Source: Mycobacteriales bacterium
GTDB taxonomy: Bacteria; Actinomycetota; Actinomycetes; Mycobacteriales; JACQDL01
Assembly (NCBI GenBank): GCA_035476575.1
Contig: DATILL010000065.1
Coordinates: 49,149-113,148 of the forward strand
Length of the DNA stretch: 64,000 nucleotides
Direction of reading: 5' to 3'
Shown here piece by piece: positions 5,701-24,018 of this stretch. The stretch's first letter is position 1. The number at the start of each line of letters is the position of its first letter. The notes under the pieces were generated by a model that was not told the DNA's origin, made no database searches, and worked only from the letters and a program-made list of their open reading frames with translations. A program made the position numbers and the translations under genes.

Positions 5701-8005
5701 CTACACCCATACTCGACACCCCCAGGACGCCGTCGAGGCGCTGACCGCCGCCGTCGACGGCTACCGCCAGATCGCCGAGACACACCCGCACGCCGTCCAT
5801 GCCGGCCTGCGCGCGGCCACCGCGGCACTCGACCACGCCCAGGCGCCCGGCACCGGCGCAACCGCCCACCCGGACCGCGCCCGAACGCAGGTCCGCTACG
5901 CCCGCCGCTGGCACGAAGAGGCCATCCGCTACCCGCTGCCCGGCATCATCATCGTTCTCGGCTGGCGGACCGACCTGGCCGCGCGCCAGCCCCGCCAGCG
6001 CACGGTCCGCGACGATCTCGTCGCGCTGGTCTTCGATCGCAAGCGTGCCGCCACAGCCGCCGAGGCCACCAGCACTGAAGAAGCCGCCACCGGCGTACCG
6101 GCCGCGCCGGCCAGCGCAGCCACCGGGGCGCTGTCCGGCATCGCCAACCGCGTCTCCCAGCTCACCGGAACCCTGACGGCCCGCGTCGCCAGCTCTCGCC
6201 TCCTGTCCCCACTGGTTGCCAACAGCAACATCACCCAGCTTGGCAAGGTCGTCGGCCTCGCCACCGCCCTCACCGCCCTGGTCGCCGGCGTCATCGTCGT
6301 GGCACCCGGCCACCATCCGGCGCCCGCGCCATCCACCGACGTGGCCCAGTCGACCCCAAATCCCACCTTCCCCCCCGGCCCGGGTCAGACCGGCGGGCCG
6401 CTCGTCCCCGGCTCTACGTCGAGCAACGGCTCCACGTCTGGGACCGGCTCTACGTCGAGCAACGGCCCTGGTGTTACGTCGAGCAATGGGGCCGGCTCCA
6501 GCCCCTCAAGCGGCTCTAGCGTTTCAAACCCCGATATTATTAATACACCCTGCGGGCAGAACCAGCACGCCGTTGCCGTTCCCCATGACCCTAGTCCGGC
6601 GACGATGTCCCTATCGAACCCGAACGTCGTGTCGCCCTCGAACCACGGCGTCTCGACGTGGGCAATGTCCCGCGTTGCTCGTATGGAAGCTGTCAGTTTG
6701 ACTGCCCCGACATTCGCCATCCGCATCGACGCCACGCGTCTAGTCTACCGACGCTTCTTCATCCCTGGGGTGACCTCCCACGTGTGGGTGGATTCCCGAT
6801 TGGTACAAACATTACAGCTTGCGCCCGGCTCATATCCGTTCCAGTTTGCTTCTGGCTACTTCGCCGACTTCAGGTTCACGGTGACCCAGGCTGGAAAGAT
6901 CGACTACGACTCCCGTTTCAATAGTTTCCTGTCCGGAACGGGTACCTCCACACTCACTATCTCGGGCTTCTTGGTGACCCTGGATGCCCGTCATCTGTCG
7001 GGCCTTGGCGTCCTGCTCGCTCACATGCCAGCCCAGGGCTGGATCACCTACACGCAGGTTCGCATGGTTCCCGCCTCGCACTACGATGTGCAGAGCCCAG
7101 GTGGCATCGCGAGCTTTTCATTCAAGCTGGGACTCGACGGGCGGTTCTCGTACGGCTCTTCTCTGGACGTGAGAAGCGGTGGAGTCCTTAAAGGAAACGG
7201 GACCTCCTCGTTGGAAATCGTCGGTTATCCTATCCGTATCGACGCCTCACGCCTATCTTATCGGTACTTCCTTATCCCTAACATAACGCTCAAATTCATA
7301 GACGCTCAGACGATACCCACCCTGCAGGTCCTGCCAGGCTCATACGCGTTTCAGTTTGCTTCCGGCTACTTCGCCGACTTCAGGTTCACGGTGACCCAGG
7401 CCGGACTGATTGACTACGACTCCCGCTTCGCGGGTTTCCTCAGTGCGTATAGGTCCACACTTACTGTCACCGGCTTATCGGTGACCCTGGACGCTCGGCG
7501 CCTGTCGGGCCTTGGCATTCTGCTCGCTCACATGCCAGCCCAGGGCTGGATCACCTACGAGCAGGTTCGCATGCTCCCCGCCTCGCACTACTCTGTCCAG
7601 CAAGGCTCGGGCGAGGTCACGAGCTTTATCTTCAAGTTGGGGCTTGATGGAAGGTTCTCGTACGACTCTTCTCTGGACGCCAACAGCGGCGGGTTCCTCA
7701 AAGGAAACGGAACCTCCACCCTAGAATTTCTCGGCTACCCGCTATGTGTTGACGCACGGTCCGCCGGAGGAGCAGGGGTCACCGTCGAGCCAATCCGGGG
7801 AATGCCGTTCAGTACCACGCACGTCCAGCTTGCCTACCTGCTCCCTGCGCCGTACTTCAGACTCAGGTTCAATCCTGGCCATGCTCCGTTCTCCCTCGCA
7901 CCGAATGGCACCTTCAGCTTCGATAGCGCTCTGTCACCCTACTTGCGTCTGGAGAAGCGCGGCGGCATAACTGTGCTCACGGTTCTCGCGCCACCCCCTG
8001 CTTGA
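2747..8005 (+). CDS. NLR-like STAND NTPase (P-loop NOD) with TPR array, one TM helix, Ser/Gly/Thr linker and C-terminal tandem beta-rich repeats (1752 aa)
   Basis: The N-terminal motif SQVAVGDRNVVGDGNVV spans 2804-2854. Walker A is GLGGQGKTQLAG (about 3085-3110) and Walker B-like is LLVVDYAEN. About ten TPR_10/12-like units carry a recurring AAALTNLG..L...GR..EA pattern (about 4500-5800). A hydrophobic helix LGKVVGLATALTALVAGVIVVAP lies at about 6240-6305. An S/G/T-rich linker spans 6400-6530, and five roughly 85-aa repeat units run from 6712 to 8005. Confidence 0.85.
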   Translation: MTGPRGSDPGPASSLVISGSQVAVGDRNVVGDGNVVVDRFVFEGWAHVSEPTTRDEAAGMLLCPPPRPASDALPGGWLRPEAGVITPWRRPEAEDLVQWCVGKPTGLLRLVHGLGGQGKTQLAGQVCAELRQRGWLAGFVELPAPGGGEVPAVGRGAGLPISAWSHRQSEIMTAVRALPKLGVSALLVVDYAENHAAAVGMLLREAVRAATAPTASTPPRILLLSRGEVDWLDDHPCRGWVHPEPILLGPLPGSLWEAGGEFAELDAAEVVAQVWTKAVTQFAAHVESGPLTTTAEPGALAAAALATGTPTSFLTTLDLYADALLRVLDRAQQLAGPAEAGASRPGGDPISGILAHERRVVAQAFAAAGVDLDGYERDRAVCVAFLRPAADSTSAADALATLPGLRALPAGQRDRVVGVLARLFPSDGGENVWEAPRPDRLTDTHLLRVAQAARSGKDFDDYVVAVCGGDDRQLAGHTARTLLRALSTPGAAVWYPVGLRRVEGSITALARAHPGGYVPALVALDPVRFEDEILDTLDVRRTAAGSQPLPIEPVEDIDSELRRIGATTSRLRIAVAVSRRLVEATRPAGTAEDDPVEVARHADQLVGLSRRLAEAGSLGEAVGPAREAVKWYRPLFDGDPETYRQALAAAVTNLGSRLADDGAPAAALAAAEEAVTLRRELAETGSHEHQVDLASALHNLGLRLWDAEEVDRAVAPAGEAVTLLRALAAADPAEQARLAVVLTSLAQIHAATGSPVQAVAAAREAVAIMRRLAEANPDGYLPGLAAALVALSAHLSPPAGRPRMSRPVREAVRLAAEAVETCRQLAVVNPLAYEPDLAAALTNLGLRYATAGQATEAVTATEQAVDIRRRLAGHDSNRHRADLAASLSNVALQVGSTRRRADALAPAREAVEVYGQLQEELPSARSDLAAALTNLGYLLAATGRDDEAIAPTAQAVATYQQLLADQPQLVQRIYLAEAQYNLGLHYTHTRHPQDAVEALTAAVDGYRQIAETHPHAVHAGLRAATAALDHAQAPGTGATAHPDRARTQVRYARRWHEEAIRYPLPGIIIVLGWRTDLAARQPRQRTVRDDLVALVFDRKRAATAAEATSTEEAATGVPAAPASAATGALSGIANRVSQLTGTLTARVASSRLLSPLVANSNITQLGKVVGLATALTALVAGVIVVAPGHHPAPAPSTDVAQSTPNPTFPPGPGQTGGPLVPGSTSSNGSTSGTGSTSSNGPGVTSSNGAGSSPSSGSSVSNPDIINTPCGQNQHAVAVPHDPSPATMSLSNPNVVSPSNHGVSTWAMSRVARMEAVSLTAPTFAIRIDATRLVYRRFFIPGVTSHVWVDSRLVQTLQLAPGSYPFQFASGYFADFRFTVTQAGKIDYDSRFNSFLSGTGTSTLTISGFLVTLDARHLSGLGVLLAHMPAQGWITYTQVRMVPASHYDVQSPGGIASFSFKLGLDGRFSYGSSLDVRSGGVLKGNGTSSLEIVGYPIRIDASRLSYRYFLIPNITLKFIDAQTIPTLQVLPGSYAFQFASGYFADFRFTVTQAGLIDYDSRFAGFLSAYRSTLTVTGLSVTLDARRLSGLGILLAHMPAQGWITYEQVRMLPASHYSVQQGSGEVTSFIFKLGLDGRFSYDSSLDANSGGFLKGNGTSTLEFLGYPLCVDARSAGGAGVTVEPIRGMPFSTTHVQLAYLLPAPYFRLRFNPGHAPFSLAPNGTFSFDSALSPYLRLEKRGGITVLTVLAPPPA
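6712..7745 (+). repeat. Intragenic tandem duplication (about 510 bp / 170 aa, two copies, each made of two roughly 85-aa sub-units; a fifth divergent unit follows to 8005)
   Basis: The string cagtttgcttc(t/c)ggctacttcgccgacttcaggttcacggtgacccagg occurs at 6842 and at 7352, an offset of 510. The protein blocks FAIRIDATRL..TLTISG/FLVTLDARHLSG..SLEIVG repeat as YPIRIDASRL..TLTVTG/LSVTLDARRLSG..TLEFLG. The region is visibly AT-richer than its surroundings. Confidence 0.9.
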
Positions 8006-8339
8006 CCCAGGCCGGTCCAACTCTCAGCCCCGATTCTGCGGTAGCGTCAAAGTTAGTATTCGCATTATTAGATAATCTCGCGGCGAGGTTAGCTCTATGT
8101 GGCAAGTCAGATCCCGCTGGTGGCGAGTTCGGGTGTTCCGGGTGCGCGGTATCTGTGGGGGAGTGATGGTCAAGGCACGGTGGCAGGCACCCCGCGGATC
8201 AACAGCCGGATCCGCAGACCCGCAGTTCGAGCAGTAGGAAGCTGCCGGTTCATTCATTGGAGCTGGCTGCGACGTGGTAACTTCGTCGGCGGTCCCTCTA
8301 AACCGGCCAGGAGCTGTGCGCCAGACCCCACTATGTGGT

Positions 8340-9452
8340 CTACGCGGCGGGTAGCTGCCAAATGTGGTCAGTGTCGAGCCGGACGAGCTGCTGGTCGTGG
8401 CGGATAGTGAGCAGGTAGGCGTCGTAGCTGGGTTTGCCGAGGTGCTCCCATTCGGAGTGGGCGGCCTCGACCTCGTCCCAGAGCCGGCGTGGGCCGTTCT
8501 GGGTGACGGTGCCGGCGGGGGTGATATGGGCGCGCGAACCGTCAGGGTGGCTGAGGTACAGGTCGGCCAGGTCGTTTCCGCCGTTGGCGTAGCTCAGGCT
8601 GGGCAGCGCGATCGAGAGGTGGAAGCGAAACGGTCCGTCGTACACGGCGGTGCTGGGCAGGTTCGCCTGACGGGATGGGCCGGCGGGCTCGGCCGGCGAG
8701 TGAGGGGCCGGCCCGGGCCGAGTGGCCGCCGTCCCGCGCAGTGGCATGAAGTATGCCCCGGACAGGAACCGGCCGGCGGCGCGGTCACCGTCGACCTCCA
8801 GCAGGGCCAGGCCGCTGGCGATGGGCGCGAGTATCTTCCCGCCGGGCCGAGTCTGCGCGAGCCATGCGGGCGGGACGCGGGTCAGGCCGCAGGTGGCGAG
8901 GATCCGGTCGTACGGCGCGCGAGCTGGGTAGCCGTTGGCGCCGTTGCCGCTGCCAATGAGCGGGTGGTAGCCAGCCGCTGCTAGCCGCTTTCGCGCAGCG
9001 GTGCAGAGGCCGGGGTCGATGTCGATGCTGGTGACGAGGTGGTCGCCGAGGCGATGGCAGAGCAGCGCGGCGGTGTAGCCGGTACCGGTGCCGACCTGCA
9101 GCACCCGGTGCCCGTCGGCTACGTCCAGGTCGTGCAGCATCGCGGCGACCAGGGATGGCATGGTGCCGGAGGAGGTGACGCTGGCGGGGGTGATCTGGGT
9201 GATCAGCGTGCTGTCGCGGTAGACCGCGGCCAGCCACTCCTGCCGATCCTCCACTCGCGTGCTGTCGACCAGACGATAGCCGGGCTGAGCGTAGAATCGC
9301 GGGACAAGCAGGTGCCGTGGTACCGCGGTGAAGGCCGCCTGCCACGCGGGGTCGGGCAGCGACCCATCAGCGACGAGCTCGGTGACCAGCGCCTTCCTCA
9401 GTTCTGCCGCCAGCTCTGTCGCGTCACGCGGTTGTGCGGCTGGACCGTTCAC
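8340..9452 (-). CDS. RiPP-associated O-methyltransferase, protein-L-isoaspartate O-methyltransferase (PIMT) homologue with a C-terminal extension
   Basis: A PIMT-like N-terminal half (AFTAVPRHLLVPRFY) and a SAM-binding GxGxG motif (VLQVGTGTGYTAALL) are present. The preferred start, GTG 9452, overlaps the ATP-grasp stop (GTGA). The tracked ORF begins further upstream, at 9524. Confidence 0.8.
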   Translation of the reverse strand: MNGPAAQPRDATELAAELRKALVTELVADGSLPDPAWQAAFTAVPRHLLVPRFYAQPGYRLVDSTRVEDRQEWLAAVYRDSTLITQITPASVTSSGTMPSLVAAMLHDLDVADGHRVLQVGTGTGYTAALLCHRLGDHLVTSIDIDPGLCTAARKRLAAAGYHPLIGSGNGANGYPARAPYDRILATCGLTRVPPAWLAQTRPGGKILAPIASGLALLEVDGDRAAGRFLSGAYFMPLRGTAATRPGPAPHSPAEPAGPSRQANLPSTAVYDGPFRFHLSIALPSLSYANGGNDLADLYLSHPDGSRAHITPAGTVTQNGPRRLWDEVEAAHSEWEHLGKPSYDAYLLTIRHDQQLVRLDTDHIWQLPAA

Positions 9453-10444
9453 GGCTGTTCCATGAGCAGGTCGGCGATCGACGCGGAGATCGGTATGCCA
9501 GTCCGGTATTCCAACCAGGCCCACTGCCCGGCCGGGTTCACGTCCACCAGCAGATGCCGGCCGGTGCCTTTCTCGACCACAAAGTCCAGTGTGGCGAAGT
9601 GCAGCCCGAGGTGCTTGAGCAGCCGTGCGACGCCGAGCGACTCCGGCTCGGGCAGCTCGCCGATGCGGTAGTCCAGGTCGGCGTAGTGAGCTCGCCAGTC
9701 CAACAGGTCCCGACCGGTGGCCGAGCGGATCTCAACCGCGAACATCTGCCGACCGACGACGGTCACCCGCAGGTCATGGTCTTTGTCGATGAGCTGCTGG
9801 AAGCAATGCCCGGTAGCTCGTATTCCGGGATCTTCCCAGCGCCCGGTAGGGACCTCGGTGACGTACACGACTCTGCTCGGCCGCCCGTGCTTGTCACGGA
9901 GACCGCGTCCGTCCAACGGCTTGTACACGATCCGGCCGCCCACCTCCGCGGCAAACGGCGGCACATCCTCGGGCCGGTTGGTGATCAAAGTGGGCGGCAC
10001 GACCAGACCGCAAGCGCGAGCGGCCGCCAGGTTGACCGGCTTGGACTCAGCCCCTTCCACCGCGGCAGGGTCGTTGACCAGGCGAACAGGTAACGACCGC
10101 AGGACTCCCCACAGCGCGTGACGACCCTGCCGCGCGCACCATTGTCGCTGCTCGGCGGGCAGCGCCTCGGCCGGCCGGACGTCACCGGCTCGGCGCCAGT
10201 ACACCGATCGGAGTCGGGTCAGGTCGACCTCCCGGAGGCCCCACATCGACCCAGACCAACCCTCACCCTTCTCGGCGGCGCCCAAGGTGGCGGTCAGGGA
10301 CAGCCCTGCTGGGAAGTGCGCGCCGTCGATGCGTGCGAAGCTCACCCCCCGCTCCAACAGATGCCGGATGACGTGGTCTGCGGTCGGGTCGACATCGGCG
10401 GTGACAACCAGGACGCGAGGGCTGTCGGGCATGGGTGACGTCAC
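9449..10444 (-). CDS. ATP-grasp ribosomal peptide maturase (graspetide omega-ester/amide ligase)
   Basis: 331-aa ORF with ATP-grasp-type motifs (IVYKPL, FQQLIDKDHDLRVTVVG, LDFVVEKGTGRHLLVDVNPAGQW). It lies between a small precursor ORF and the methyltransferase. The start could be GTG 10444 or ATG 10432. Confidence 0.8.
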   Translation of the reverse strand: MTSPMPDSPRVLVVTADVDPTADHVIRHLLERGVSFARIDGAHFPAGLSLTATLGAAEKGEGWSGSMWGLREVDLTRLRSVYWRRAGDVRPAEALPAEQRQWCARQGRHALWGVLRSLPVRLVNDPAAVEGAESKPVNLAAARACGLVVPPTLITNRPEDVPPFAAEVGGRIVYKPLDGRGLRDKHGRPSRVVYVTEVPTGRWEDPGIRATGHCFQQLIDKDHDLRVTVVGRQMFAVEIRSATGRDLLDWRAHYADLDYRIGELPEPESLGVARLLKHLGLHFATLDFVVEKGTGRHLLVDVNPAGQWAWLEYRTGIPISASIADLLMEQP

Positions 10445-10450
10445 GTTGCC

Positions 10451-10699
10451 TTAGTCGTGCGCGGGGTCGGTGTCGACGGCGAGTGGGTCCTTGCCGTCGG
10501 GGTTGGTTTGCGCGGTGCAGGTCGCCACCATCGGCGCGACCTCGTGTAGCGGCCGACCATCCGGCAACACCGCGATCTGCTGGTCCGGGCAGAGGAAGGC
10601 GGCGGACAACACGGACCCATCAGGGTCGGCTGGGACCGGCAGCGCGAACACCAACCCCAACGGCGGACAAGGCTGCACATCGACGGTTATCGGATCCAT
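10451..10699 (-). CDS. Graspetide precursor peptide (82 aa); predicted core ..ATCTAQTNPDGKDPLAVDTDPAHD
   Basis: ATG 10699 is preceded by GGAGAGGAG. The Thr- and Asp-rich C-terminus surrounds an Asp-Gly dipeptide. The gene sits 6 nt upstream of the ATP-grasp gene. The 268-aa tracked ORF (to 11257) is treated as an upstream read-through artefact. Confidence 0.7.
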   Translation of the reverse strand: MDPITVDVQPCPPLGLVFALPVPADPDGSVLSAAFLCPDQQIAVLPDGRPLHEVAPMVATCTAQTNPDGKDPLAVDTDPAHD

Positions 10700-10949
10700 G
10701 GAGTCTCCTCTCCTGCGGCCAGATCTTATCCGGACGAGGCATGGTTTCTCACCACCTGGTCGGCACGGAAGTGGCTCGCCGTCCTCACGCGGCCGTTTAG
10801 CTACGACGAGCAACCGGCCGATAGGGCAGTTTCTTGAAGACCGAGACCGATATTGTCCGCGGTGCCGTGCGTCAGCCCGTGTTCGATGAAGGGTATGGGT
10901 GCAGAGCCGATCGAGATAGTTGGTCTGCTGGTGTCCGGTCTGTCTGCCG

Positions 10950-11253
10950 CGGGCGTGCGCCGGGGGCGGGTCGCGGCGTGGCAGACTCCACCTCATGTTG
11001 CGCTGGATAACCGCGGGGGAGTCGCACGGCCCCGCGCTGGTCGCCGTACTCGAGGGGCTGCCGGCCGCGGTGCCCGGATGAGCTTCGAGCGGGACGAGGT
11101 CGAGCTGACCGGCGGGGTCCGGCACGGGGTCACGATGGGCGGCCCGGTCGCGATCCGGGTCATGGCCGTCGACCCGGTCGACCCGGACGAGCTCGCCAGC
11201 CTGGCCCGCAACGCCCCCCTGACCCGGCCCCGCCCCGGCCACGCCGACCTGGA
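10950..11253 (+). pseudogene. aroC: Decayed duplicate of the aroC 5' end plus about 40 nt of upstream leader
   Basis: The nucleotide sequence is near-identical to 12072-12470, apart from two internal deletions. Read from ATG 10995 it gives [28 protein letters not shown] and then a stop. Confidence 0.85.
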
Positions 11254-11454
11254 ACATGTGGGCGCGGGCCTATCCGCCCCGGCCGGCAGGAGATCCCGTG
11301 CCTGGTCCGGGACGGCGACGTCGTCCCGGACTGCACCACCTCGTTTCCGCAGGTCAACGGGGGGTGGGACGGTGGGACAGTTCTTGTAGGTCGGCGCTGT
11401 CCCACCTCCGCTACGGACATGCGACACTGGCCAGGGACAAGGAACGGAGGTGCG

Positions 11455-11640
11455 ATGACGACCAGCAACCCCGATCACACCGCGCTGCCTGAGCCGCTCA
11501 CCGTCGAGGAGCTGTTCCGGCACGTCCAGCCCATCCGGTCGGCCGACGACCTCGCCTGCGAGGGCATCTTCGAGACCGACGCCGAGCTGGACGAGTTCCT
11601 TGCGCACGTGGTGACAGCGCGACACTCCGATCTTGCATGA
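11455..11640 (+). CDS. Putative type II antitoxin (VapB-like, 61 aa)
   Basis: ATG 11455 follows a GGAACGGAGG RBS. The protein is small and acidic. Its stop overlaps the PIN-toxin start (ATGA at 11637-11640). Confidence 0.55.
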   Translation: MTTSNPDHTALPEPLTVEELFRHVQPIRSADDLACEGIFETDAELDEFLAHVVTARHSDLA

Positions 11641-12028
11641 AGCGCATCGTCCTCGACACCGACGTTGCCTCTCTCAGTCTCAAGCATCGGCTGCCGCCGA
11701 CCACAGCGGCCCGCCTCGTGGGCTGGCAGCCAAGCGTTACCTTGGGCGAGCTGACACAATGGGCGGAGCTACGCCAGTGGGGACAACGAAACCGCGGGCT
11801 TCTCGACAGTGGCTTTCCGGGGTAGCCGTGCTCCCCTGCACCAGCGAGGTGGCACGGACCTGGGGACGGATTTCCGCCTCGGCAGTACGGCGCGGCCGGC
11901 CACGTCCACAGAACGACACGTGGATCGCAGCCTGCTGCCTCACCTACGGCTTCCCGTTGGCAACGCTGAACCTGAAGGACTTCGCCGACTTTGCCGAACA
12001 CGAAGGTCTGAGGTTGCTCGGCAGTTGA
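11637..12028 (+). pseudogene. vapC: PIN-domain toxin VapC, frameshifted
   Basis: The N-terminus MKRIVLDTDVAS (PIN Asp) is in frame 11637-11825. The rest (WLSGVAVLPCTSEVARTWGRI..NDTWIAACCLTYGFPLATLNLKDFADF) is in the frame of ORF 11633-12028. The frame changes near 11800-11815. Confidence 0.7.
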
Positions 12029-12115: not shown

Positions 12116-15349
<3,234 letters not shown>

Positions 15350-16039
15350 CCCACCCGCACGGCTCAGCCGCCACCGGCAGTCCGGGGCGGCACGGGGTGA
15401 GAAACCCTGGCCGCCTATCTCTCCTACCGCAACTCGATGAAGGTTGGTCCGCGTCGACGCGGGCGCGGCGGCGTAGGGACGCAGCCGAGACGGCTGTACG
15501 GCGTAGCCTCGACGGGCCAAAAGACTAGGCTTCTACGAACCGAGGACACAGCTTCTGCCAAGATTTCCCAATGCGCACCGCGACGGCCGCAGATCGTGCT
15601 TGCCGCGCGGCTTCCGCACCGGCGGTGACGCCAGCCTCCGTCTCGCAGCCCATGCCTGGGCGCCGACCGCTAGAGCCGGTAGGCCTGCACCTGCACCCGT
15701 GCCCTTGGCGATTACAGCCGTCGCCACGCTCGTCTCCAGGCACGGCGAGCTGACCCGTGTCGGTCACGCCGGTCTGGTGGGTCTTGCCCATGTCGGTCCC
15801 CTTCCTCCTGGTCTTCCTGACCTTCTTGGCGGATCACCCGATAACCGCCATACGGCAGGTTGCCGGTGGGGAACCGCTGCCTCATTTCCGAAAGTCCGGA
15901 CAACCTCCATGGCGTGCCCGCCACGGGGGCATCGCCACCTGGCGCCTGGTGGCTCCTTTCTTGGCGGCAGCGGAGAGAACTAAATTTCAGAAAACGTGGT
16001 TCTCAACGACAACCGACCGCCACCCTAGGGGGAGACGGC

Positions 16040-16774
16040 ATGGCGGCGCGACAGGAGATAAGACTTGAACTACTGGGTGTCTTTCGGCTTCGGTACGCAC
16101 AGACCGCCGTTGTCCTGCGCCCAAGCTCGCGCCGTCTTATCGCGCTGCTGGCCGTTACCGGAACTCAGGCACGGTTGGACGCCGCCGCGCGGCTGTGGCC
16201 GGACCTGCTGCAGGCCCGAGCCGCGTCCAACTTGCGCACGGCGGCCTGGCGGATCCGGCAGGACGCGTGTGGGCTCCTGGTCAGCGAGGGCGACGTGCTG
16301 CGGCTTGAGGAGCTGAGCTGCGACCTCACGGAGGTACGGGACTGGGCGCGCCGCACGGTGGCCGGTGAGCAGCTTAGCCACCTCCCTGAGCACGCGGCGG
16401 CGGAGCTGCTGCCCCGGTGGAGCGACGAGTGGCTTATCGAGCCCCGCGAAGAGCTCCGGCTCCTGCAGCTGCACGCGCTTGAAGCATTAGCGCAGCGACT
16501 CCTCATGGCTGGTCGGCTCGCTGAGGCATGCACTCACGCGCTGACCGCCGTGATGATGGACCCACTACGCGAAAGCGCTACCCGGCTGCTTATCGAGATT
16601 CATTTGCGCGAGGGCAACACTCTGGACGCCGTCCGGAGGTTCCACCGCTTTGAGGAGCTGCTCGACCAAGAGCTCGACGTTGCGCCCAGCCCCGCGATCA
16701 CCTCTCTGGTGGCTCCCCTTATTACGTCGAAGCGTGCGGCGGGGGTTGACCCGCGAAGGCTCCGCCGGACCTGA
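16040..16774 (+). CDS. SARP-family regulator (OmpR-type winged helix plus bacterial transcriptional activation domain)
   Basis: The protein starts at ATG 16040 (MAARQEIRLELLGVFRL..). A BTAD-like helical region is present (LLIEIHLREGNTLDAVRRFHRFEELLDQELDVAPSP). It lies immediately upstream of the lanthipeptide genes. Confidence 0.75.
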   Translation: MAARQEIRLELLGVFRLRYAQTAVVLRPSSRRLIALLAVTGTQARLDAAARLWPDLLQARAASNLRTAAWRIRQDACGLLVSEGDVLRLEELSCDLTEVRDWARRTVAGEQLSHLPEHAAAELLPRWSDEWLIEPREELRLLQLHALEALAQRLLMAGRLAEACTHALTAVMMDPLRESATRLLIEIHLREGNTLDAVRRFHRFEELLDQELDVAPSPAITSLVAPLITSKRAAGVDPRRLRRT

Positions 16775-17009
16775 GGCTCAGCCACCCTCCGTGGCCGCCG
16801 ACCGCACCATGTGCCCGATAACTCCGTTCTCCGGCAACCCGTTCATCAACGCGTCGACCACTCGGCGTCGGCGCGGCTGCGACGGCATCGAGGCATCGCC
16901 GCGGCGCCCGCGCGGTGAGCTCCCGGCGCGCGAGGAGCCAGTCGACCCACGGGTGGGGAACGTAGCCCGTGCCATGGTCCTGGTGACGCACTCGCAAGGG
17001 AGGGGTCGA

Positions 17010-17372
17010 ATGGCCGACGGCGTGGACCTCGCGCATTTGCAGGAGCTCGAGCAGCGGCTCGCCACGCTCGAGGCACAGTCAGGCCAGCCATCAGGCGGCA
17101 GTGAACAAGGATCCGGAGGTGTCGGAATGACCAGCGGTCAAGGCCAAGCCCCAAGCCCAGAGCAACAAGGGCTTATGCAGGCGTTCTTGCAAGGGGCCAT
17201 GGCGGCCCAGGCGCTCGCCCAAGCGGCGGCACAGCAGGCGGGCCAAGCGGGCCAGGCGGTCGTCGGCGCGCAGGGCGGTGCAGCTCCAGCGGGGTTCACG
17301 AGCTACGACTCCATCTTCTGGTGCAGGAGCCGGTTCATGTGCAACCCGCAGTCAATCTCCTGCTTCTGCTGA
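17010..17372 (+). CDS. Lanthipeptide precursor (120 aa); C-terminal core ..FTSYDSIFWCRSRFMCNPQSISCFC
   Basis: ATG 17010 follows a GGGAGGGG RBS. The leader opens with an amphipathic HLQELEQRLATLEA segment and continues as a long Q/A/G-rich stretch. The last 25 residues contain 6 Ser/Thr and 4 Cys. The kinase and LanC genes lie directly downstream. Confidence 0.75.
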   Translation: MADGVDLAHLQELEQRLATLEAQSGQPSGGSEQGSGGVGMTSGQGQAPSPEQQGLMQAFLQGAMAAQALAQAAAQQAGQAGQAVVGAQGGAAPAGFTSYDSIFWCRSRFMCNPQSISCFC

Positions 17373-17539
17373 GGACGAGAAGAGGCACCTGAGCCGGGCG
17401 GGGCGTCGCGGCCCACGCCATGCCCTGCGCATGCCGTGTGCGGCGCTCCCCTGGCTTGGTCCTTGCGCGCAGCCGGCGAGGAGTGCGGCCCAGTGCGGAA
17501 TGCGGCCAGTGCGGAATGCGGCCCAGTGAGGAGTGGACG

Positions 17540-18700
17540 GTGACGGACAAGCTGCTGACCGAAGCTCACGGAACCCTGACCGAGACTGAGGTCATCCCAT
17601 ACCTGCGCGAACGCGGTCTCGTCGACGGCGCCAGCGTCGTCGACGGCGACATCCGCGTTCTCGACGTGTCGCGACGGAACCGGAACTTCCGCGTGCTCCG
17701 CTCCGCGGGACCGTCGTTCCTGCTCAAGCAGGGCGTCGCGCGGGACAGCTTCAGCGCTGTTGCCCGGGAGGCACGTGCTTATGAGCTGTTCGGCCCGTTG
17801 CCCCACAGCGTCGGGGCGGGATCGTCGCCAGCGTTTCGGCACGCGCCAACCGCGTACGCATACGACGACGAGCGCGACGTGCTGGTCCTGGAGCTCGTGA
17901 CCGGCGTGGAGAACCTGCGCGTCCGGCACCGGCGCGCGCGCCGCCCGCCGCGAGACGCCGCTCGTGCCGTCGGGCGGGCGCTTGCCGCGCTGCACCAGCT
18001 TGTGCCGGCGACGGTCGACCTGGCCACGGCGCAGCGGCTGCTGGGGGCCGGCGAGCCTGGTGTCTTGTCGGTGCAGCGTCCGGGGCTGAGCATGCTGCGC
18101 GACTTCAGCAGCGCGTGCGTTGACCTGGTGCGGATGGTCCAGGCGGCGCCCGACGTCCCCGAGCTGCTCGCCGGCCTGCGGCAGGACTGGCGCACTGACA
18201 CGCTGATTCACCATGACGTCCGCTGGGACAACTTCCTGCTGCCCCTTCCGCGCGCGCGAAATGGCGCACGCGGCCGGCGTGAGGTCATGCTCGTCGACTG
18301 GGAGACCGCCGCCCTGGGCGACCCCTGCTGGGATGTCGGCGCGGTGTTTGGTGAATATCTCGGCGACTGGCTCAGCTCCGTCCCGGGTGTGGCAGGAGAG
18401 CCGCCAGAGCGGTTCCTGCATTTGGCGCGCTGCCCGCTGGAGTCGGTGCAGCCAGCCGTCCGGTCGTTCTGGTCGGCCTATGTCGGGCAGGCCGGCCTGG
18501 CAGCGGGACAGGCCAGCGAGCATCTTCTCCGGTCAGTCCGGTACTCCGGGCTCAAGCTGGTTCAGTCTGGCCTGGAGCAGGTGCAACGGTCCGCCCGGTG
18601 GACCGTCTGCACCGTGTCCTTCCTGCAGGTCGGGGTCAACATCCTGACCAGGCCGGAGGAGGCTGGCGCTGTGCTGCTCGGGTTGGGAGGCGTGGCGTGA
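17540..18700 (+). CDS. Aminoglycoside-phosphotransferase-like kinase (LanK-type dehydration kinase candidate)
   Basis: GTG 17540 follows a GAGGAG RBS. The catalytic loop is HHDVRWDNFLL and the metal-binding segment is LVDWETAALGDPCWDVG. Its stop overlaps the next gene's start. Confidence 0.75.
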   Translation: MTDKLLTEAHGTLTETEVIPYLRERGLVDGASVVDGDIRVLDVSRRNRNFRVLRSAGPSFLLKQGVARDSFSAVAREARAYELFGPLPHSVGAGSSPAFRHAPTAYAYDDERDVLVLELVTGVENLRVRHRRARRPPRDAARAVGRALAALHQLVPATVDLATAQRLLGAGEPGVLSVQRPGLSMLRDFSSACVDLVRMVQAAPDVPELLAGLRQDWRTDTLIHHDVRWDNFLLPLPRARNGARGRREVMLVDWETAALGDPCWDVGAVFGEYLGDWLSSVPGVAGEPPERFLHLARCPLESVQPAVRSFWSAYVGQAGLAAGQASEHLLRSVRYSGLKLVQSGLEQVQRSARWTVCTVSFLQVGVNILTRPEEAGAVLLGLGGVA

Positions 18701-21120
18701 CCAGCCATGTCGACCGCCTCGACGAGGCGGTGCGCGCGGTGCGGATCGTGTCGTCGACGTCCTTCACCTGGTTCGGCGTCCGGTCGCCCGCCCCACCGGC
18801 CCGGCTCCGGTCCATGTTTACCCCCGAGGTCGCTCGCGCCCACCTGCGCCTCGGCCTCCGTGACCGGCTTTACCAGGACTTTTACTGCGCGGGCACGGCA
18901 CGGCCCTCCCCGTCGCAAGACTGGCACGCCGGCCGGCCCAGTGACCGGATGGCCCTCGCGATGTCCCGCGCCAACGGCGGCCGCGGCACGTGGGAACCGG
19001 GCTGGGTGGTCCGCACCGTCGAAGAGGGGCTGTTCGCGGTGCGCCGCAACGGCCTGGAGCTGTGGGTACGGCCGCAGGACTGCCGCACCGACGCTGGGAC
19101 GCCGGCTTCCGGGCACGAGGTAGCGGTCCGCCTCCCCAAGGAGTCGTTCGAGCTGGCGCCCGGCTACTACTGCGCCCTCAGCGACGCGCCCTTTCCGTGG
19201 GATGGCGACGGCGTCCTGGTCCGGGTGTACCTCAACCTGCGACCCGACCAGGCGGTGCGTGGCGTCGGGGCGCTCACCGGCCGGCTCAACGCCGCTGACG
19301 TGCCGTACCGGTTGAAGGTGCTCAACGACGAGCAGAGCTACGCCCGGTGTGACACCGCGGTGCTCTACCTGCGGCAGCAGGATGTTGCCGTCGCCGTTGA
19401 GCCCCTTGCCCACGCCGTCAACGACCTCCGCGCGGCGTTGCGGCCGGCAGTGCCGGCGATGACCAAGGCGCTGGTGCCGGGGGTGGGGCTGGCCGAGGAC
19501 CCGGGATCCGCCGGTGACAGCTTCGGGCAGCACCGCTGCGCGCTGGTCGCCGACGGGTTGCTGCAGGCGCACGAGGTGGGCAGCAGGTCTCCGCGGGCCC
19601 AGTTGGAGGCAGTCCTGGACGTCTTCCGCGCCGCGGGCGTCGATCCGGAACGGCCTTACCTGAACCCCGGCTCGCTCGACCGCTACGCGCTTCCCGCCCA
19701 GCCCCGCCTCGCCATCCCTGGGTGGAGGCCGGTCCGCGCCGACGGTGCCGGGAGCCCCGACCTCCGGGTGGCCCCCTTGAGCGCTGTCGCGCTCATCGAC
19801 GTCGCGCGCCGGATCGGCTGCCGGCTGACCGCCGACGCCGTCTGGCACGAGGACCGCTGCACCTGGCTCGGGCCTGTTCCAGCGCTGGACGAGCATGGCG
19901 GGCCGGCGCTGGCGCACGGCACCATTGGCAGCGGGCTGTATGACGGCACCAGCGGCGTCGCTGTTTTCCTCGCCGCGCTCGCCGCCACGACGGGCGACCA
20001 GGATGCGGCCCGGACCGCGTCGGCCGCGGTCCGGCAGGCGCTGGGCGCCGCCGGGCACGGCCGCGACGCCCCTGGCCTGTACAACGGCACGGTGGGCGTG
20101 TGCCTCGCCGCCGCGGTCGTGGCCAGGCTCACCAGCGACGGCGCCCTGGCCACGGCTGCCCGAAAGCTCGTAGACGAAGCGCTGTCGCGCCAGCAGGAGG
20201 CGTTCGGGTTCGACGTCCTGTCCGGCTTGGCCGGTGCGGTCGCGGGCGTGCTGACGCTCTCGGCGCTGCTTGCGGACAGCAGCCTGGTCGAGGACGCGGT
20301 CCGGCTCGGAGAGGCGCTGGTCGGCGCCGCCGTTCGCGCTGACGAGGGCTGGTCGTGGCGGCCCGGGACCGGGTTGCGCCATCCCGATCTGACCGGCCTG
20401 TCGCACGGTGCCGCTGGCGCGGGCTACGCGTTGCTGGAGCTCTTCCGGGTCACTGGCGACAGCCGGTGGGCGTCGGCGGGCCGGGAGGCTTTCCGGTACG
20501 AGCGGGCCTGGTTCTCGCCGGACGCGGGCAACTGGCCGGACTTTCGCGACGAGAAGGGGCGGCCGTCGCGGCGGCGCCCCTTGGCGTTCCGCACCCAGTG
20601 GTGCCACGGCGCACCAGGGATCGCCCTCACCCGGCTCAGGGCCGCCGAGCTCCTGGGCGACACAGCGCTGGGCGAGGAGGCGGTCGTGGCGCTGTCAACC
20701 ACCATCGAGAACACTCGGGCGGCCCTGCTCGATGGGACTTTGGGCTTCAGCCTGTGCCACGGGCTGGCCGGCAACGCGGACGTGCTGCTCGACGGCCTGC
20801 CGCTGGCGGAGGAGCGGGACCTTCCCGCCCGGGCGTTGGTGGCGGAGATTGCCGCGGCCGGACATGCCCGGCACGCCGTCGGCGAGCAGCCGTGGCCCTG
20901 CGGGCTGTCTACGCACGGAGGCGAGAGCCCCGGCCTCATGCTTGGGCTCGCGGGTATCGGCTACCACTACCTCCGCCTCGCCTGTCCCGACGTCGTCCCG
21001 TCCGTGCTGCTGCTGCGGCCGGAGCGCACGGCCGAAGGCATCGCCGCGCTCGCGGGCGAGCGGGCCAGCCGCGCTGCCACCACCAGCCGCGCTGCCACCA
21101 CCAGCCTTGCGGGCACGTAA
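18697..21120 (+). CDS. Fusion protein: about 400-aa N-terminal domain (candidate HopA1-like phospho-Ser/Thr lyase) plus a C-terminal LanC-like cyclase
   Basis: The GTG start overlaps the kinase stop (GTGA). The C-terminal half has the LanC signatures GLSHGAAGAGYALLELF, TQWCHGAPGIALTRL and FSLCHGLAGNADVLL, so the Zn ligands are present. The N-terminal assignment is inferred from three-component (class V) systems and was not recognised directly. Confidence 0.7.
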   Translation: MTSHVDRLDEAVRAVRIVSSTSFTWFGVRSPAPPARLRSMFTPEVARAHLRLGLRDRLYQDFYCAGTARPSPSQDWHAGRPSDRMALAMSRANGGRGTWEPGWVVRTVEEGLFAVRRNGLELWVRPQDCRTDAGTPASGHEVAVRLPKESFELAPGYYCALSDAPFPWDGDGVLVRVYLNLRPDQAVRGVGALTGRLNAADVPYRLKVLNDEQSYARCDTAVLYLRQQDVAVAVEPLAHAVNDLRAALRPAVPAMTKALVPGVGLAEDPGSAGDSFGQHRCALVADGLLQAHEVGSRSPRAQLEAVLDVFRAAGVDPERPYLNPGSLDRYALPAQPRLAIPGWRPVRADGAGSPDLRVAPLSAVALIDVARRIGCRLTADAVWHEDRCTWLGPVPALDEHGGPALAHGTIGSGLYDGTSGVAVFLAALAATTGDQDAARTASAAVRQALGAAGHGRDAPGLYNGTVGVCLAAAVVARLTSDGALATAARKLVDEALSRQQEAFGFDVLSGLAGAVAGVLTLSALLADSSLVEDAVRLGEALVGAAVRADEGWSWRPGTGLRHPDLTGLSHGAAGAGYALLELFRVTGDSRWASAGREAFRYERAWFSPDAGNWPDFRDEKGRPSRRRPLAFRTQWCHGAPGIALTRLRAAELLGDTALGEEAVVALSTTIENTRAALLDGTLGFSLCHGLAGNADVLLDGLPLAEERDLPARALVAEIAAAGHARHAVGEQPWPCGLSTHGGESPGLMLGLAGIGYHYLRLACPDVVPSVLLLRPERTAEGIAALAGERASRAATTSRAATTSLAGT

Positions 21121-21166
21121 CCAGCCGCCTCGGCGGCACCCGTCTAGCATCACCTTGGGGAGCGTC

Positions 21167-22609
21167 ATGTACAGCGAGGTCCTAGCCGGGGCACTGCCCA
21201 CCACCCACCGCGCGATGGTGATCGTCCGGCTCCGTGCGGGGTCGGCGGCAGGCCAGGCCGCCGCGGAGGCCGAGCCTACGGGCGGCCTGTCCATCCTCGA
21301 TGAGCTCGACCGGGCCGGCCGGGTGAGGGCGGTCCTGCCGTTGACCCCCGCCGCGGCAGGGCCGGAGGGCGCCGGCGGTGCGATCGCCGCGCTGTCCACC
21401 ACTGCGCAGCAGGGGGACCTGGGCGCGGCGAGCATCATCCGCCTCACCGACGACGAGGACGTGGCCCGGCTGCTTCCGGCCCTCAACGACCACCGCGACG
21501 TTGAGTACGCCAGCCGCGTCCCGGCCCGCTGGTTCGCCTCCGCGACACCGCCGGCTCAGGCCGTCGAGCACCGGATCGCCGGCCTGGAGTCCCGCATCGC
21601 GGGCCTTGAGGCAGCCCCCCAGCCTTCTCCGGTGTGGAACCTACAGAAGGTCCTGTGGGACCAGGCGGTCCGCGAGCTCGGGACCGAGGAGGTCGGGAAC
21701 GTGCGCGTCGGCGTCCTCGACACCGGCGTCGACGACCAGCACCCTGACCTGGCCGACCGGCTGGCCCGCTACGTCCACGCTGGCCCGTCCACCTCCGGGC
21801 AGGTGGTGTCCGACCAGGACGTCGTCGGGCACGGCACGCACGTCGCCGGCACCATCGCCGCCCGGTTCAACCAGGCGATCGGGACACGCGGGATCTGCGC
21901 CACCCGGCTGTCAGTATGGAAGATCTTCGACGATGTCCCCGACTACATCGAGACACGGGGCGTGTACTGGTATCTCGTTGACCCGGTCCTGTACCGGCGG
22001 GCGCTCGCCGACTGCGCCGAGCAGGTCGACGTCGTCAACCTCAGCATTGGCGGCACCGAGCCGCCCGACCCGCAGGAGAGTGCGCTGTTCCGCGTGCTCG
22101 GCGAGCGCGGTGTCACGGTCGTGGCGGCGATGGGCAACGAGCGCGGCCTGGGCAGCCCGACGTCGTACCCGGCCGCCATCCCGGGTGTGGTCGCCGTCGG
22201 GGCCACCGCGCCCGACGACAGCGTGGCCTCCTTCTCCAACGCCGGCGACTACATCAGCGTGTCCGCGCCTGGGGTCGCTATCTGGTCCACGGTGCCCCAC
22301 TATCCTGGGCAGGTCGGGTTCCATGCCGACGTCCGCGCCGACGGCCAGCCCGAGCGCGGCGCGCCGGTGCCGCGCGAGGTGAACTACGCGGCATTGAGCG
22401 GTACGTCCATGTCCGCGCCGCATGTGACGGCGGCGACCACCCTCCTGCTGGCGAGCAGCCGCCAGAAGCGCGATCCGGAGTCGGTCCGCTACCTGCTCAT
22501 GGCCAGTGCTGATCATGTGGGGAGCATGCAGGGCCAGGTGTGGAACCGGGACATCGGCGCTGGTCGGCTCAACCTGCGCCGGCTGATCCTCGCCGGCCGG
22601 CACCTGTAG
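21167..22609 (+). CDS. Subtilisin-like S8 serine protease (candidate leader peptidase)
   Basis: The catalytic triad motifs VGVLDTGVDDQHPDL, GHGTHVAGTIAA and SGTSMSAPHVTAA are present. ATG 21167 follows GGGGAG. Confidence 0.85.
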   Translation: MYSEVLAGALPTTHRAMVIVRLRAGSAAGQAAAEAEPTGGLSILDELDRAGRVRAVLPLTPAAAGPEGAGGAIAALSTTAQQGDLGAASIIRLTDDEDVARLLPALNDHRDVEYASRVPARWFASATPPAQAVEHRIAGLESRIAGLEAAPQPSPVWNLQKVLWDQAVRELGTEEVGNVRVGVLDTGVDDQHPDLADRLARYVHAGPSTSGQVVSDQDVVGHGTHVAGTIAARFNQAIGTRGICATRLSVWKIFDDVPDYIETRGVYWYLVDPVLYRRALADCAEQVDVVNLSIGGTEPPDPQESALFRVLGERGVTVVAAMGNERGLGSPTSYPAAIPGVVAVGATAPDDSVASFSNAGDYISVSAPGVAIWSTVPHYPGQVGFHADVRADGQPERGAPVPREVNYAALSGTSMSAPHVTAATTLLLASSRQKRDPESVRYLLMASADHVGSMQGQVWNRDIGAGRLNLRRLILAGRHL

Positions 22610-22616
22610 CACCGGC

Positions 22617-22874
22617 ATGGCAGCGCCAGTTGTCGCGTTCACCATCGCGGCGGATGTCCCCGCGGAGGCGCAGGGTGCGGTGATCGCGGCGGTCAGGTCC
22701 GTTGACGGGGTGGTGGACGCCTACCGCCTCTCCCCGGAGTCGAGCATTCCGGAGGTACGGCGCATGTGCGCCGCGGCCCTCGCCAACGGTGCCGATCCGC
22801 GCGCGGTGGCCGCACGCGTGCGGGGCGTCCCCGGCGTCGAAAGCGCCGACGTGCCGCCTGCCCGCGGGATCTGA
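22617..22874 (+). CDS. Hypothetical 85-aa protein at the end of the lanthipeptide island
   Basis: The ORF has GC-biased third positions. It starts 8 nt after the protease stop. No motif was recognised. Confidence 0.4.
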   Translation: MAAPVVAFTIAADVPAEAQGAVIAAVRSVDGVVDAYRLSPESSIPEVRRMCAAALANGADPRAVAARVRGVPGVESADVPPARGI

Positions 22875-22920
22875 CCTGTGGACAACCGGCCTTGCTGGCC
22901 GGGCGGATACCGTGGCAGCC

Positions 22921-24018
22921 ATGCCTGCCACCCACATCGCCCGGCGGGACCGGCTGCGGGAGATCCTCCGCGAACGCGGGCTGGACGCCGCCCTGGTCAC
23001 CAACCTGGTCAACGTCCGCTACCTCACCGGTTTCACCGGCACCAACGCCGCCCTCCTGGTGTACGCCGACGGCCCGGGCGCCGACCCGGGCGTGTTCGGC
23101 ACCGACGGCCGGTATGACGCCCAGTCGGCCGAGCAGGTGCCGGAGCTGCCCCGGGTGCTCCAGCGGGCCACCGACCAGGCCATGGCCGCCCGAGCCGCCG
23201 CCGACGGCCACCACACGGTCGGCTACGAGTCGCACCACGTCACCGTGGACGGCCTCGCCGAGCTGCGGGCCGCCGCCGAGCAGCTCCGGCTCGCCACCCT
23301 CAACCAAGCGGTCGAGCAGCTCCGGCTGACCAAGGACAACGCCGAGATCGAGCTGCTCCGGCGGGCCTGCGCGATCGCCGACCAGGCCCTGGCCGGGCTC
23401 ATCGAGGCCGGCGGGCTGCGGCCCGGCCGGACGGAGCGCCAGGTCGGCCGCGACCTGGACGGCCGGATGCTGGACCTCGGCGCGCACGCCGTCAGCTTCG
23501 AGACGATCGTGGCCACCGGGCCGAGCTCCGCCATCCCGCACCACCGCCCGGACGACCGTGAGCTGGCCGCGGGCGACCTCGTCAAGCTGGACTTCGGCGC
23601 GCAGTACGGTGGCTACCACTCCGACATGACCCGCACGATGGTCCTCGGCGAGCCGGCCGGCTGGCAGCGCGAGATCTACGAGCTGGTGGCCGCGGCGCAG
23701 CGGGCCGGCAGCGCCGCCGTGGCCGTCGGTGCGGACGTGCGGGAGGTGGACCGGGCCGCCCGCGAGGTGATCGAGCGGGCCGGGTACGGCGAGCGGTTCA
23801 GCCACGGGCTGGGGCACGGGGTGGGGCTGGAGATCCACGAGGCACCGGCGTTGTCCCCTCTCGGCGCCGGTACACTCGCCGAGGCGACGCCGCTCACCGT
23901 CGAGCCCGGTGTGTACCTGCCCGGCCGCGGCGGCGTCCGCATTGAGGACACGCTCGTGGTCCGCGCCGACGGGCCCGAGCTGCTCACCCTCACCACCAAG
24001 GATCTCGTCAGCCTGTAA
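22921..24018 (+). CDS. pepP: Xaa-Pro aminopeptidase (M24 family)
   Basis: The protein starts MPATHIARRDRLREIL. The metal-ligand block SHGLGHGVGLEIHEAP is present. It sits in conserved synteny with efp and nusB. Confidence 0.85.
   Translation: MPATHIARRDRLREILRERGLDAALVTNLVNVRYLTGFTGTNAALLVYADGPGADPGVFGTDGRYDAQSAEQVPELPRVLQRATDQAMAARAAADGHHTVGYESHHVTVDGLAELRAAAEQLRLATLNQAVEQLRLTKDNAEIELLRRACAIADQALAGLIEAGGLRPGRTERQVGRDLDGRMLDLGAHAVSFETIVATGPSSAIPHHRPDDRELAAGDLVKLDFGAQYGGYHSDMTRTMVLGEPAGWQREIYELVAAAQRAGSAAVAVGADVREVDRAAREVIERAGYGERFSHGLGHGVGLEIHEAPALSPLGAGTLAEATPLTVEPGVYLPGRGGVRIEDTLVVRADGPELLTLTTKDLVSL

Follow-up and report, generated by a model that had tools for sequence, protein, structure and literature searches.

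A block of six genes lying between the housekeeping genes aroQ and pepP of an uncultured actinomycete raises the question of whether it specifies a lanthipeptide and, if so, by which enzymatic logic. The block lies in a 64,000-nucleotide (nt) stretch of a Mycobacteriales bacterium contig (DATILL010000065.1), called the window here, ~72% G+C actinomycete DNA in which genes were identified by open reading frame (ORF) calling guided by G+C content at third codon positions (GC3) and by Pfam. All six genes of this island are on the forward (+) strand, as are the leader, core and stem-loop features and the two flanking genes described below, in the order regulator, precursor, kinase, lyase-cyclase fusion, protease and small ORF. 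The gene lengths agree with those called independently on a Logan contig of identical sequence (L014), and a 'Mycobacteriales bacterium' metagenome-assembled genome encodes the precursor and the 85-amino-acid (aa) ORF at 100% identity, as VLJ59_08205 and VLJ59_08225. An initial annotation made from the DNA letters had listed the same genes between aroQ and pepP, and the ORF calls, Pfam matches and L014 lengths bear the list out; it had also noted that a LanD decarboxylase, a reductase, a methyltransferase and an exporter are missing, and Pfam and NCBIfam searches of the six genes detect none of these, nor any other transporter, a LanB or a LanM dehydratase domain. From the sequence evidence set out below, the island is very probably a horizontally mobile cassette, its genes intact, for the biosynthesis of a class V-type lanthipeptide, and a pathway can be proposed for it.

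The kinase gene, lanK (17540..18700), encodes a 386-aa APH-fold Ser/Thr kinase (Pfam APH, PF01636, 1e-12). Its only significant NCBIfam match is NF038156, the family of the class V kinase LxmK (9.5e-29), with CcrZ (E 0.0074) the only other family listed, and its only match in the PDB is LxmK itself (9dk1_A, 4e-6). Since the only family and PDB matches are to LxmK, the protein groups with kinases of pathways for peptides that are made on ribosomes and modified post-translationally (RiPP pathways) and not with antibiotic-resistance APHs. The ATP-binding Lys and Glu (K63 and E77), the H224-x-D226...N231 motif and D253-W-E255 are invariant in eight homologues. The lanK stop codon overlaps the start of the next gene by 4 nt, and the overlap is kept in the homologues.

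This next gene (18697-21120) encodes an 807-aa fusion protein with a HopA1 domain at residues 152-322 and a LANC_like domain at residues 413-772. The LanY half, a HopA1-like phospho-Ser/Thr lyase (residues 1-335; 18697..19701), matches Pfam HopA1 (PF17914) at 1.4e-38 and, in a phmmer search of the PDB, the 'Lyase' chain, LxmY, of 9DK1 at 1e-12; both parts of the dehydratase thus match the two chains of one structure, that of the LxmK-LxmY lexapeptide dehydratase (PMC12141560). An AlphaFold2 (AF2) model built on 46 sequences is of high quality, with a predicted local distance difference test score (pLDDT) of 91 and a predicted template-modelling score (pTM) of 0.87, and shows two domains with a disordered linker between them (about residues 336-360; 19702..19776; pLDDT <70 for residues 331-360). 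The top Foldseek match of the model is again LxmY (E 2.5e-16, TM-score 0.80 over the target), and the HopA1 effector 4rsx is found at 1.9e-5. When the window protein is aligned with 147 fused relatives, the lyase residues R176, K207 and R217 are kept in 148/148 sequences and Y224 in 145/148; their spacing matches that of R187, K219, R229 and Y236 of CaoY, the catalytic residues defined by mutation (PMC9486802).

The C-terminal half (residues 361-807; 19777..21120) is a LanC-type Zn cyclase (Pfam LANC_like, 8.4e-56). H570 (in SHG), the acid/base, and the Zn ligands C636 (in WCHG) and C687-H688 (in LCHG) are kept in 142-145 of the 148 aligned proteins. The best family match is to the C-terminus of LanM (TIGR03897, 8e-73), restricted to model positions 544-932, and the class II enzyme LicM2 (6st5) is found at 1e-18 by sequence and at 1.8e-11 by fold; after LxmY, the next Foldseek matches, all to this half, are LicM2, CuvL, LanCL1, LanCL2, MadC, CylM and NisC. 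One gap concerns the search rather than the protein: a word-index homologue search that found precursor and small ORF at 100% identity missed the 807-aa protein of the window itself (best match 67%). The L014 copy of the gene lacks a Pfam record, and the gap is probably one of the database, not of biology.

The substrate of these enzymes would be the product of the 120-aa ORF just upstream (17010-17372), which is preceded by the ribosome-binding site GGGAGGGG. All four Cys of the precursor fall within its last 16 residues, and residues 50-96 contain no Ser, Thr or Cys. The Cys-free leader, which carries conserved motifs, would occupy residues 1-94 (17010..17291), and the predicted core, GFTSYDSIFWCRSRFMCNPQSISCFC, has 26 residues with four Cys (17292..17372, stop codon included). 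The precursor family is rare: 15 sequences, all labelled hypothetical, of which 11 are relatives found among 5.8 billion proteins, two come from fetched loci and two from the metagenomic loci L016 and L017. Across all 15, the latter two with the identical motif, the core keeps T.YDS.FWC.SR.MCNP.S.SC.C; in the 13 that were aligned, T97, Y99, D100, S101, F103, W104, C105, S107, R108, M110, C111, N112, P113, S115, S117, C118 and C120 are invariant. At position 98, where the window has Ser, the family is variable (S/N/R/K/Q), and the conserved modifiable set is therefore Thr97, Ser101, Ser107, Ser115 and Ser117 plus the four Cys. In the leader, the motifs MA..VD..LQELE.RL..LE, QAFLQG (with Q57, A58, F59 and G62 invariant) and GAAP are kept, and the Gly/Gln/Ala-rich spacers between them drift. 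No second precursor copy was found when one was looked for. In many family members (P0068-P0071, L012, L016) the core is preceded by an additional segment, F[LA]SIFGC..GGGGW.P, that the window peptide lacks; it has the same Ser-x3-Cys spacing as DSIFWC and, judged by this spacing, may add a fifth ring.

Class V lanthipeptide systems fall into two groups: class Va comprises LanK, LanY, LanD and LanX, makes aminovinyl-methyl-cysteine (AviMeCys) and has no LanC, and class Vb comprises LanK, LanY and a dedicated LanC (PMC11186320, PMC12291118, PMC12328550). In the accessible parts of these papers, mSmoA is the sole characterised class Vb member, and the type example is its production by SmoK, SmoY and SmoC (Pei et al., JACS 2022, as related there). 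The island has an APH kinase beside a lyase, CaoY-type catalytic residues and an adjacent precursor with Ser/Thr and Cys, the hallmarks of class V; of the stand-alone kinase and lyase typical of that class, the kinase is separate but the lyase is fused to LanC. Its gene content, LanK, LanY and a Zn-LanC with neither LanD nor LanX, is that of class Vb save for the fusion. Likeness to SmoKYC, compared by description only, extends to the APH-fold kinase, the HopA1-like lyase, the Zn-LanC and the absence of LanD, LanX and AviMeCys. In the window, unlike in described class Vb systems, lyase and cyclase form one polypeptide, and the accessible accounts of class Vb mention neither its precursor family nor a bipartite leader of 94 aa, a linked S8 protease of the cytoplasm or an 85-aa partner protein. 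Among solved structures, the sole or nearest relatives of kinase and lyase half belong to class Va: LxmK-LxmY (9DK1) and CaoK-CaoY.

The other classes fit less well. LanKC of class III and LanL of class IV (CuvL, VenL) share the same three activities and chemical logic, and LanL also resembles the window cyclase in its Zn ligands, but these enzymes are single lyase-kinase-cyclase chains with a PF00069-type kinase and an OspF-type lyase, whereas the window has a separate APH kinase and a HopA1-type lyase. The NCBIfam scores, 106 bits against a cut-off of 650 for LanL and 59 against 575 for LanKC, come from the cyclase region only. Class II LanM enzymes, of which LicM2 (6ST5) is an example, are the nearest sequence relatives of the cyclase domain outside the fusion family; the fusion, unlike LanM, has no N-terminal dehydratase domain (DUF4135) and scores 245 bits against the TIGR03897 cut-off of 304.

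The class V logic proposed in the initial annotation is thus supported by an APH-fold, LxmK-like kinase and a HopA1/LanY lyase. Two points on which that proposal turned, whether the kinase belongs with resistance APHs and whether the N-terminal domain of the 807-aa protein is related to a lyase, were answered in its favour by the LxmK matches of the former and by the family, sequence and fold matches of the latter. The Zn-ligand LanC domain that it saw at the end of the large protein is confirmed by the Pfam match and the conserved ligands, and its 120-aa precursor by a Ser/Thr- and Cys-containing core, encoded next to the kinase, that is invariant in the precursor family. Of the three-component enzyme set, the three activities are present; they reside on two polypeptides, with the lyase fused to LanC. 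The comparators had been chosen from the correct class, but lexapeptide, cacaoidin and pristinin are LanC-less, class Va products; the right comparator is class Vb.

Could the island nonetheless be a class Va-type cluster whose product receives a C-terminal AviMeCys from LanD and LanX encoded elsewhere in the genome? LanD-type decarboxylases act on a C-terminal Cys, the core ends in Cys, and the kinase and lyase are from the same families as those of class Va. Such an arrangement is extremely improbable: neither the island nor the homologous cassettes encode a flavoprotein decarboxylase or a second, APH-like LanX, and a Zn-LanC, here fused to the lyase, is present though class Va is defined by its lack (PMC11186320, PMC12291118).

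The class V-type reading draws further weight from the recurrence of the genes. The order precursor, kinase, fusion, S8 protease and 85-89-aa ORF is shared by the window (and L014) with the metagenomic loci L011, L012/L013 and L016. The L011 enzymes are 62-68% identical to those of the window; those of L012/L013 are 52-57% identical, and their cassette is followed by a BTAD gene. A further contig, P0001, starts within a truncated APH gene and continues with fusion, S8 protease and small ORF in the same order. These homologous cassettes lie in unrelated neighbourhoods; the block recurs in four other metagenomic contexts and thus moves as a unit. Given this recurrence and a core invariant in 15 sequences, the cluster is far beyond chance. 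On the P0001 contig, the closest cassette (67% identity) is followed at 4986-7106 by a second S8 protease and a protein with PatG_D and PatG_C domains, which hints at further processing, possibly macrocyclisation.

Eukaryotic LanCL proteins add glutathione to dehydroamino acids, and the LanC domain resembles the folds of LanCL1 and LanCL2 (E 1e-10 to 1e-11), so that kinase, lyase and LanC might act on cellular proteins or small thiols, with the 120-aa ORF unrelated to them. That HopA1 and OspF relatives act on proteins (PMC9486802) and that the island has no exporter or immunity gene would suit a role of this kind, yet every close cassette has inherited the 120-aa ORF along with the enzymes, the Ser/Cys core of this ORF does not vary although its leader does, the locus includes a dedicated protease, and the LanC domain is nearest to LanM cyclase domains. 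Distant members of the family adjoin Cys/Thr-rich repeat precursors too. A function outside RiPP biosynthesis is accordingly very unlikely.

Is the fusion a peculiarity of this cassette? An exhaustive HMMER search with fusion residues 1-400 against 1.84 billion cluster representatives (50% identity) found 945 proteins at E<=1e-30. Among the best 150 of the 945, 108 are 700-830 aa long (fused), 28 are 300-370 aa long (stand-alone) and four are longer. The stand-alone relatives belong to split systems, represented by L015 and L018, in which the gene boundary falls at the linker position of the fusion; in L015, the overlapping downstream gene aligns to fusion residues 365-416. Fused and split proteins are intermixed in the set of nearest relatives, which makes the fusion a variant architecture within a single system. 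Nine loci of Acidobacteriota, Rhizobiales, Actinomycetota and Eremiobacterota have an APH gene directly upstream of the fusion gene.

Several of these loci have features of their own. The split L018 locus (5917-11844) encodes an APH (362 aa), a HopA1 protein (338 aa; 45% identical to the window's LanY part), a LANC_like protein (421 aa) and a major facilitator superfamily (MFS) protein; upstream of its APH lies a gene for a 305-aa protein, likely a giant precursor, in which Cys-Pro-Ser/Thr motifs crowd the last 180 residues. In the Rhizobiales loci L005 (7203-8669, +) and L002 (7176-8531, +), a 451-488-aa tandem-repeat protein, with repeats like AAAAPQAAAQPQGITFTPICQVTITPVCSTGIPVICNG, is encoded just upstream of the APH and looks like a multi-core lanthipeptide precursor; its A/Q-rich linkers resemble the window leader, and an S8 protease gene of these loci is oriented divergently. 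HopA1-LanC proteins of 1063-1219 aa (P0027, P0037, P0039 and P0176) bear a C-terminal extension of 300-430 residues without a Pfam match.

Maturation would begin with dehydration, for which the enzymology of CaoK/CaoY (PMC9486802) and LxmK/LxmY (PMC12141560) provides the basis. LanK would dock on the leader, through QAFLQG and the N-terminal LQELEQRL helix, and phosphorylate Ser and Thr of the core; the HopA1/LanY domain, probably in complex with LanK as in LxmK-LxmY, would then eliminate phosphate to yield dehydroalanine (Dha) and dehydrobutyrine (Dhb). The Zn-LanC domain of the same polypeptide would add the four invariant Cys to the dehydro residues, a step modelled on the established chemistry of NisC and LanM. 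The most economical set of rings, suggested by analogy and put forward tentatively, at rather less than even odds, would join Ser101 to Cys105, Ser107 to Cys111, Ser115 to Cys118 and Ser117 to Cys120, with Thr97 left as Dhb; the last two rings would be intertwined like rings D and E of nisin. Class V cyclases are reported, in the accessible part of PMC11186320, which cites Pei et al. 2022, to form non-obvious overlapping rings.

The leader would be removed by a 480-aa S8 subtilisin-like protease (21167..22609; Pfam Peptidase_S8, 4e-43), the presumed leader peptidase, whose gene comes after that of the fusion protein not only in the window but also in L011, L012, L016 and the P0001 contig. It has the attributes of a LanP-type S8 leader peptidase, a catalytic triad and a gene within the cluster: the catalytic residues D185, H222 and S414, together with N324, are invariant in four orthologues, and a pro-region of ~170 residues precedes the catalytic domain. 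Class I LanP sites have Pro at -2, and by analogy the signal-less protease would cut off the ~94-aa leader inside the cell, perhaps after GAAP-x.

A conserved 85-aa ORF (22617..22874) always directly follows the S8 gene. Its orthologues, 48-58% identical, are found in L011, L012 and L016, and an 86-aa ORF occupies the same position on the P0001 contig. The protein has no Pfam or NCBIfam match, and a Pfam search relaxed to E<=10 gave nothing relevant. In view of a possible function as a subtilisin I9-like propeptide or inhibitor, its profile was compared with that of the S8 pro-region (E 0.048, probability 1%), and an AF2 model made from the single sequence (pLDDT 60) has no Foldseek match better than E 0.4. 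The only hint to its role comes from L017, a cassette sharing the precursor core and the enzymes, where at 5071-6899 an M4 (thermolysin-like) peptidase, a 52-aa ORF and a gene for emfourin, an M4 inhibitor, replace the S8 protease and the 85-aa ORF. This swap suggests that a protease and its cognate small partner form an exchangeable module, and the 85-aa protein could, as a guess, be an inhibitor, a chaperone or a self-protection factor that partners the S8 protease.

How would the cassette be expressed? The first gene (16040..16774; GC3 0.77) encodes a 244-aa BTAD/SARP-like transcriptional activator, which would turn transcription on. Tested against the SARP layout of an OmpR-type winged helix followed by BTAD, the BTAD domain is clear (Pfam, 1.2e-14, residues 129-224), and the N-terminal DNA-binding part is supported solely by a weak alignment of residues 7-227 to the SARP module of AfsR (8hvr_I, E 1.2e-3). 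Homologues with 63% identity occur in the L012 and L013 cassettes, and L017 has a BTAD gene too. SARP boxes show an 11-nt period. The L012 cassette, with its BTAD gene, has four tandem 11-nt repeats (GAGAYGGTCCT) at 8188-8231, ~140-185 nt upstream of the precursor start; in the window, 16851-16905 shows a weak 14-nt periodicity only, and the regions upstream of the precursor cannot be aligned from one cassette to another.

Directly after the precursor stop lies a strong stem-loop (17382..17464; -57.2 kcal/mol, z = -2.6). Hairpins of different sequence occupy the same position in L011 (z -3.4), L012 (z -5.7) and L016 (z -1.9). By analogy with what is usual for lanA genes, the element is a putative attenuator or transcript stabiliser: the precursor would be made in excess, with the hairpin limiting or stabilising read-through into the enzyme genes. 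Between the hairpin and lanK, an imperfect 33-nt tandem duplication (17469-17534; 79% identity), rich in GCGGCCCAGTG units, adjoins the GAGGAG ribosome-binding site and start codon of lanK on their upstream side.

Several observations weigh against an intact, mobile and productive class V-type cassette. With 100 bits against an LxmK equivalog cut-off of 315, LanK is a distant relative of the class V kinase. The N-terminus of the S8 protease bears no hydrophobic signal sequence, and the island contains neither an exporter nor an immunity gene nor a LanT. No sigma-70-like promoter was found in the window, and no 11-nt-periodic SARP box upstream of its precursor. The GC3 of the island, 0.75-0.90 compared with 0.89-0.98 in nine flanking genes, may reflect expression level rather than foreign origin, and the ring pattern and the cleavage site are proposed by analogy alone. 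Were the acquired cassette silent or in decay, yielding no product in its host, of which a metagenome-assembled genome and a Logan contig are the sole records, the atypical composition, the lack of a recognisable promoter or SARP box and the missing export gene would fit; this is quite unlikely, as all six ORFs are intact, the catalytic residues and precursor invariants are all present, and the translational-coupling overlap of lanK and the fusion gene (lanYC) is kept as in the homologues.

The position of the island bears on how the class V-type cassette was acquired. On the left, the gene order by ORF calling and Pfam is aroC-aroK-aroB-aroQ, and on the right pepP-efp-nusB-bldD-pyrR, with bldD on the - strand. 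The flanking aroQ (14903..15349; type II 3-dehydroquinase; DHquinase_II, 4e-57; GC3 0.95), whose start was taken from a 148-aa gene call on L014, and pepP (22921..24018; M24 Xaa-Pro aminopeptidase; Peptidase_M24, 1.4e-66; Creatinase_N, 1e-21; GC3 0.95) both lie outside the island. A 690-nt non-coding left junction (15350..16039; GC 0.67) separates aroQ from the regulator; a six-frame check of it found no convincing ORF, and no Rfam family was found in the window, this junction included. There is no terminator between the 85-aa ORF and pepP, no tRNA at the island borders, and no flanking direct or att-like repeats or integrase there.

The junction was also surveyed in 80 metagenomic loci (L020-L099) with pepP relatives (44-71% identity), 32 of which also have aroQ upstream. 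Island genes are present in none of the 80. The distance between aroQ and pepP, 7571 nt in the window, is at most 302 nt in 14 of the 32 and 0.55-8.7 kb in the other 18, where the gap holds unrelated genes (luciferase-like, transporter-like and others). The initial annotation had placed the cluster within an otherwise invariant housekeeping block, a description that fails in view of these 18 loci: since the gap is variable in relatives, the island is an acquisition at a recurrently variable spot, not an intrusion into an invariant block.

Elsewhere in the window, at 8340-10444 on the - strand and ~5 kb upstream of the aro operon, an MvdD-like ATP-grasp protein (2.5e-7) is encoded beside a PCMT/PIMT-type protein O-methyltransferase (Pfam, 1e-28). 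Pairing of an O-methyltransferase with an ATP-grasp protein is typical of graspetide or aspartimide-forming RiPP clusters, and this pair may mark a second RiPP locus.

What, then, would be new about the cassette? Neither a LanY-LanC fusion nor the peptide family of the window is described in the accessible literature, which does not include Pei et al. 2022, and that literature contains no mention of PF17914 together with PF05147 or of LanYC-type names. The abstract of the Pei study is said to count more than 240 class V clusters with a LanC, and the fusion may already have been noted there. There is a little under an even chance that LanK and fused LanY-LanC constitute a large, experimentally untried branch of lanthionine synthetases (at least 108 of the 150 closest 50%-identity representatives are fused, and several phyla are represented), in which the window bears a new and rare peptide family: 15 sequences, an invariant four-Cys core, a ~94-aa bipartite leader and a dedicated S8 protease acting inside the cell with a new 85-aa regulator or inhibitor as its partner, in parallel to the M4 peptidase and emfourin.

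The fusion is a variant of known chemistry, not a new mechanism, and the cluster leaves the known chemical logic unchanged. Its interest lies in architecture and maturation. A natural lyase-cyclase fusion, the prevailing form in the nearest relatives, has implications for the coupling of dehydration to cyclisation in class V, and a module of a protease and a small protein, in a cassette that has no exporter, raises the question of where and how such peptides mature. The compact, highly conserved core, which comes from uncultured actinomycetes, is suited to heterologous expression.

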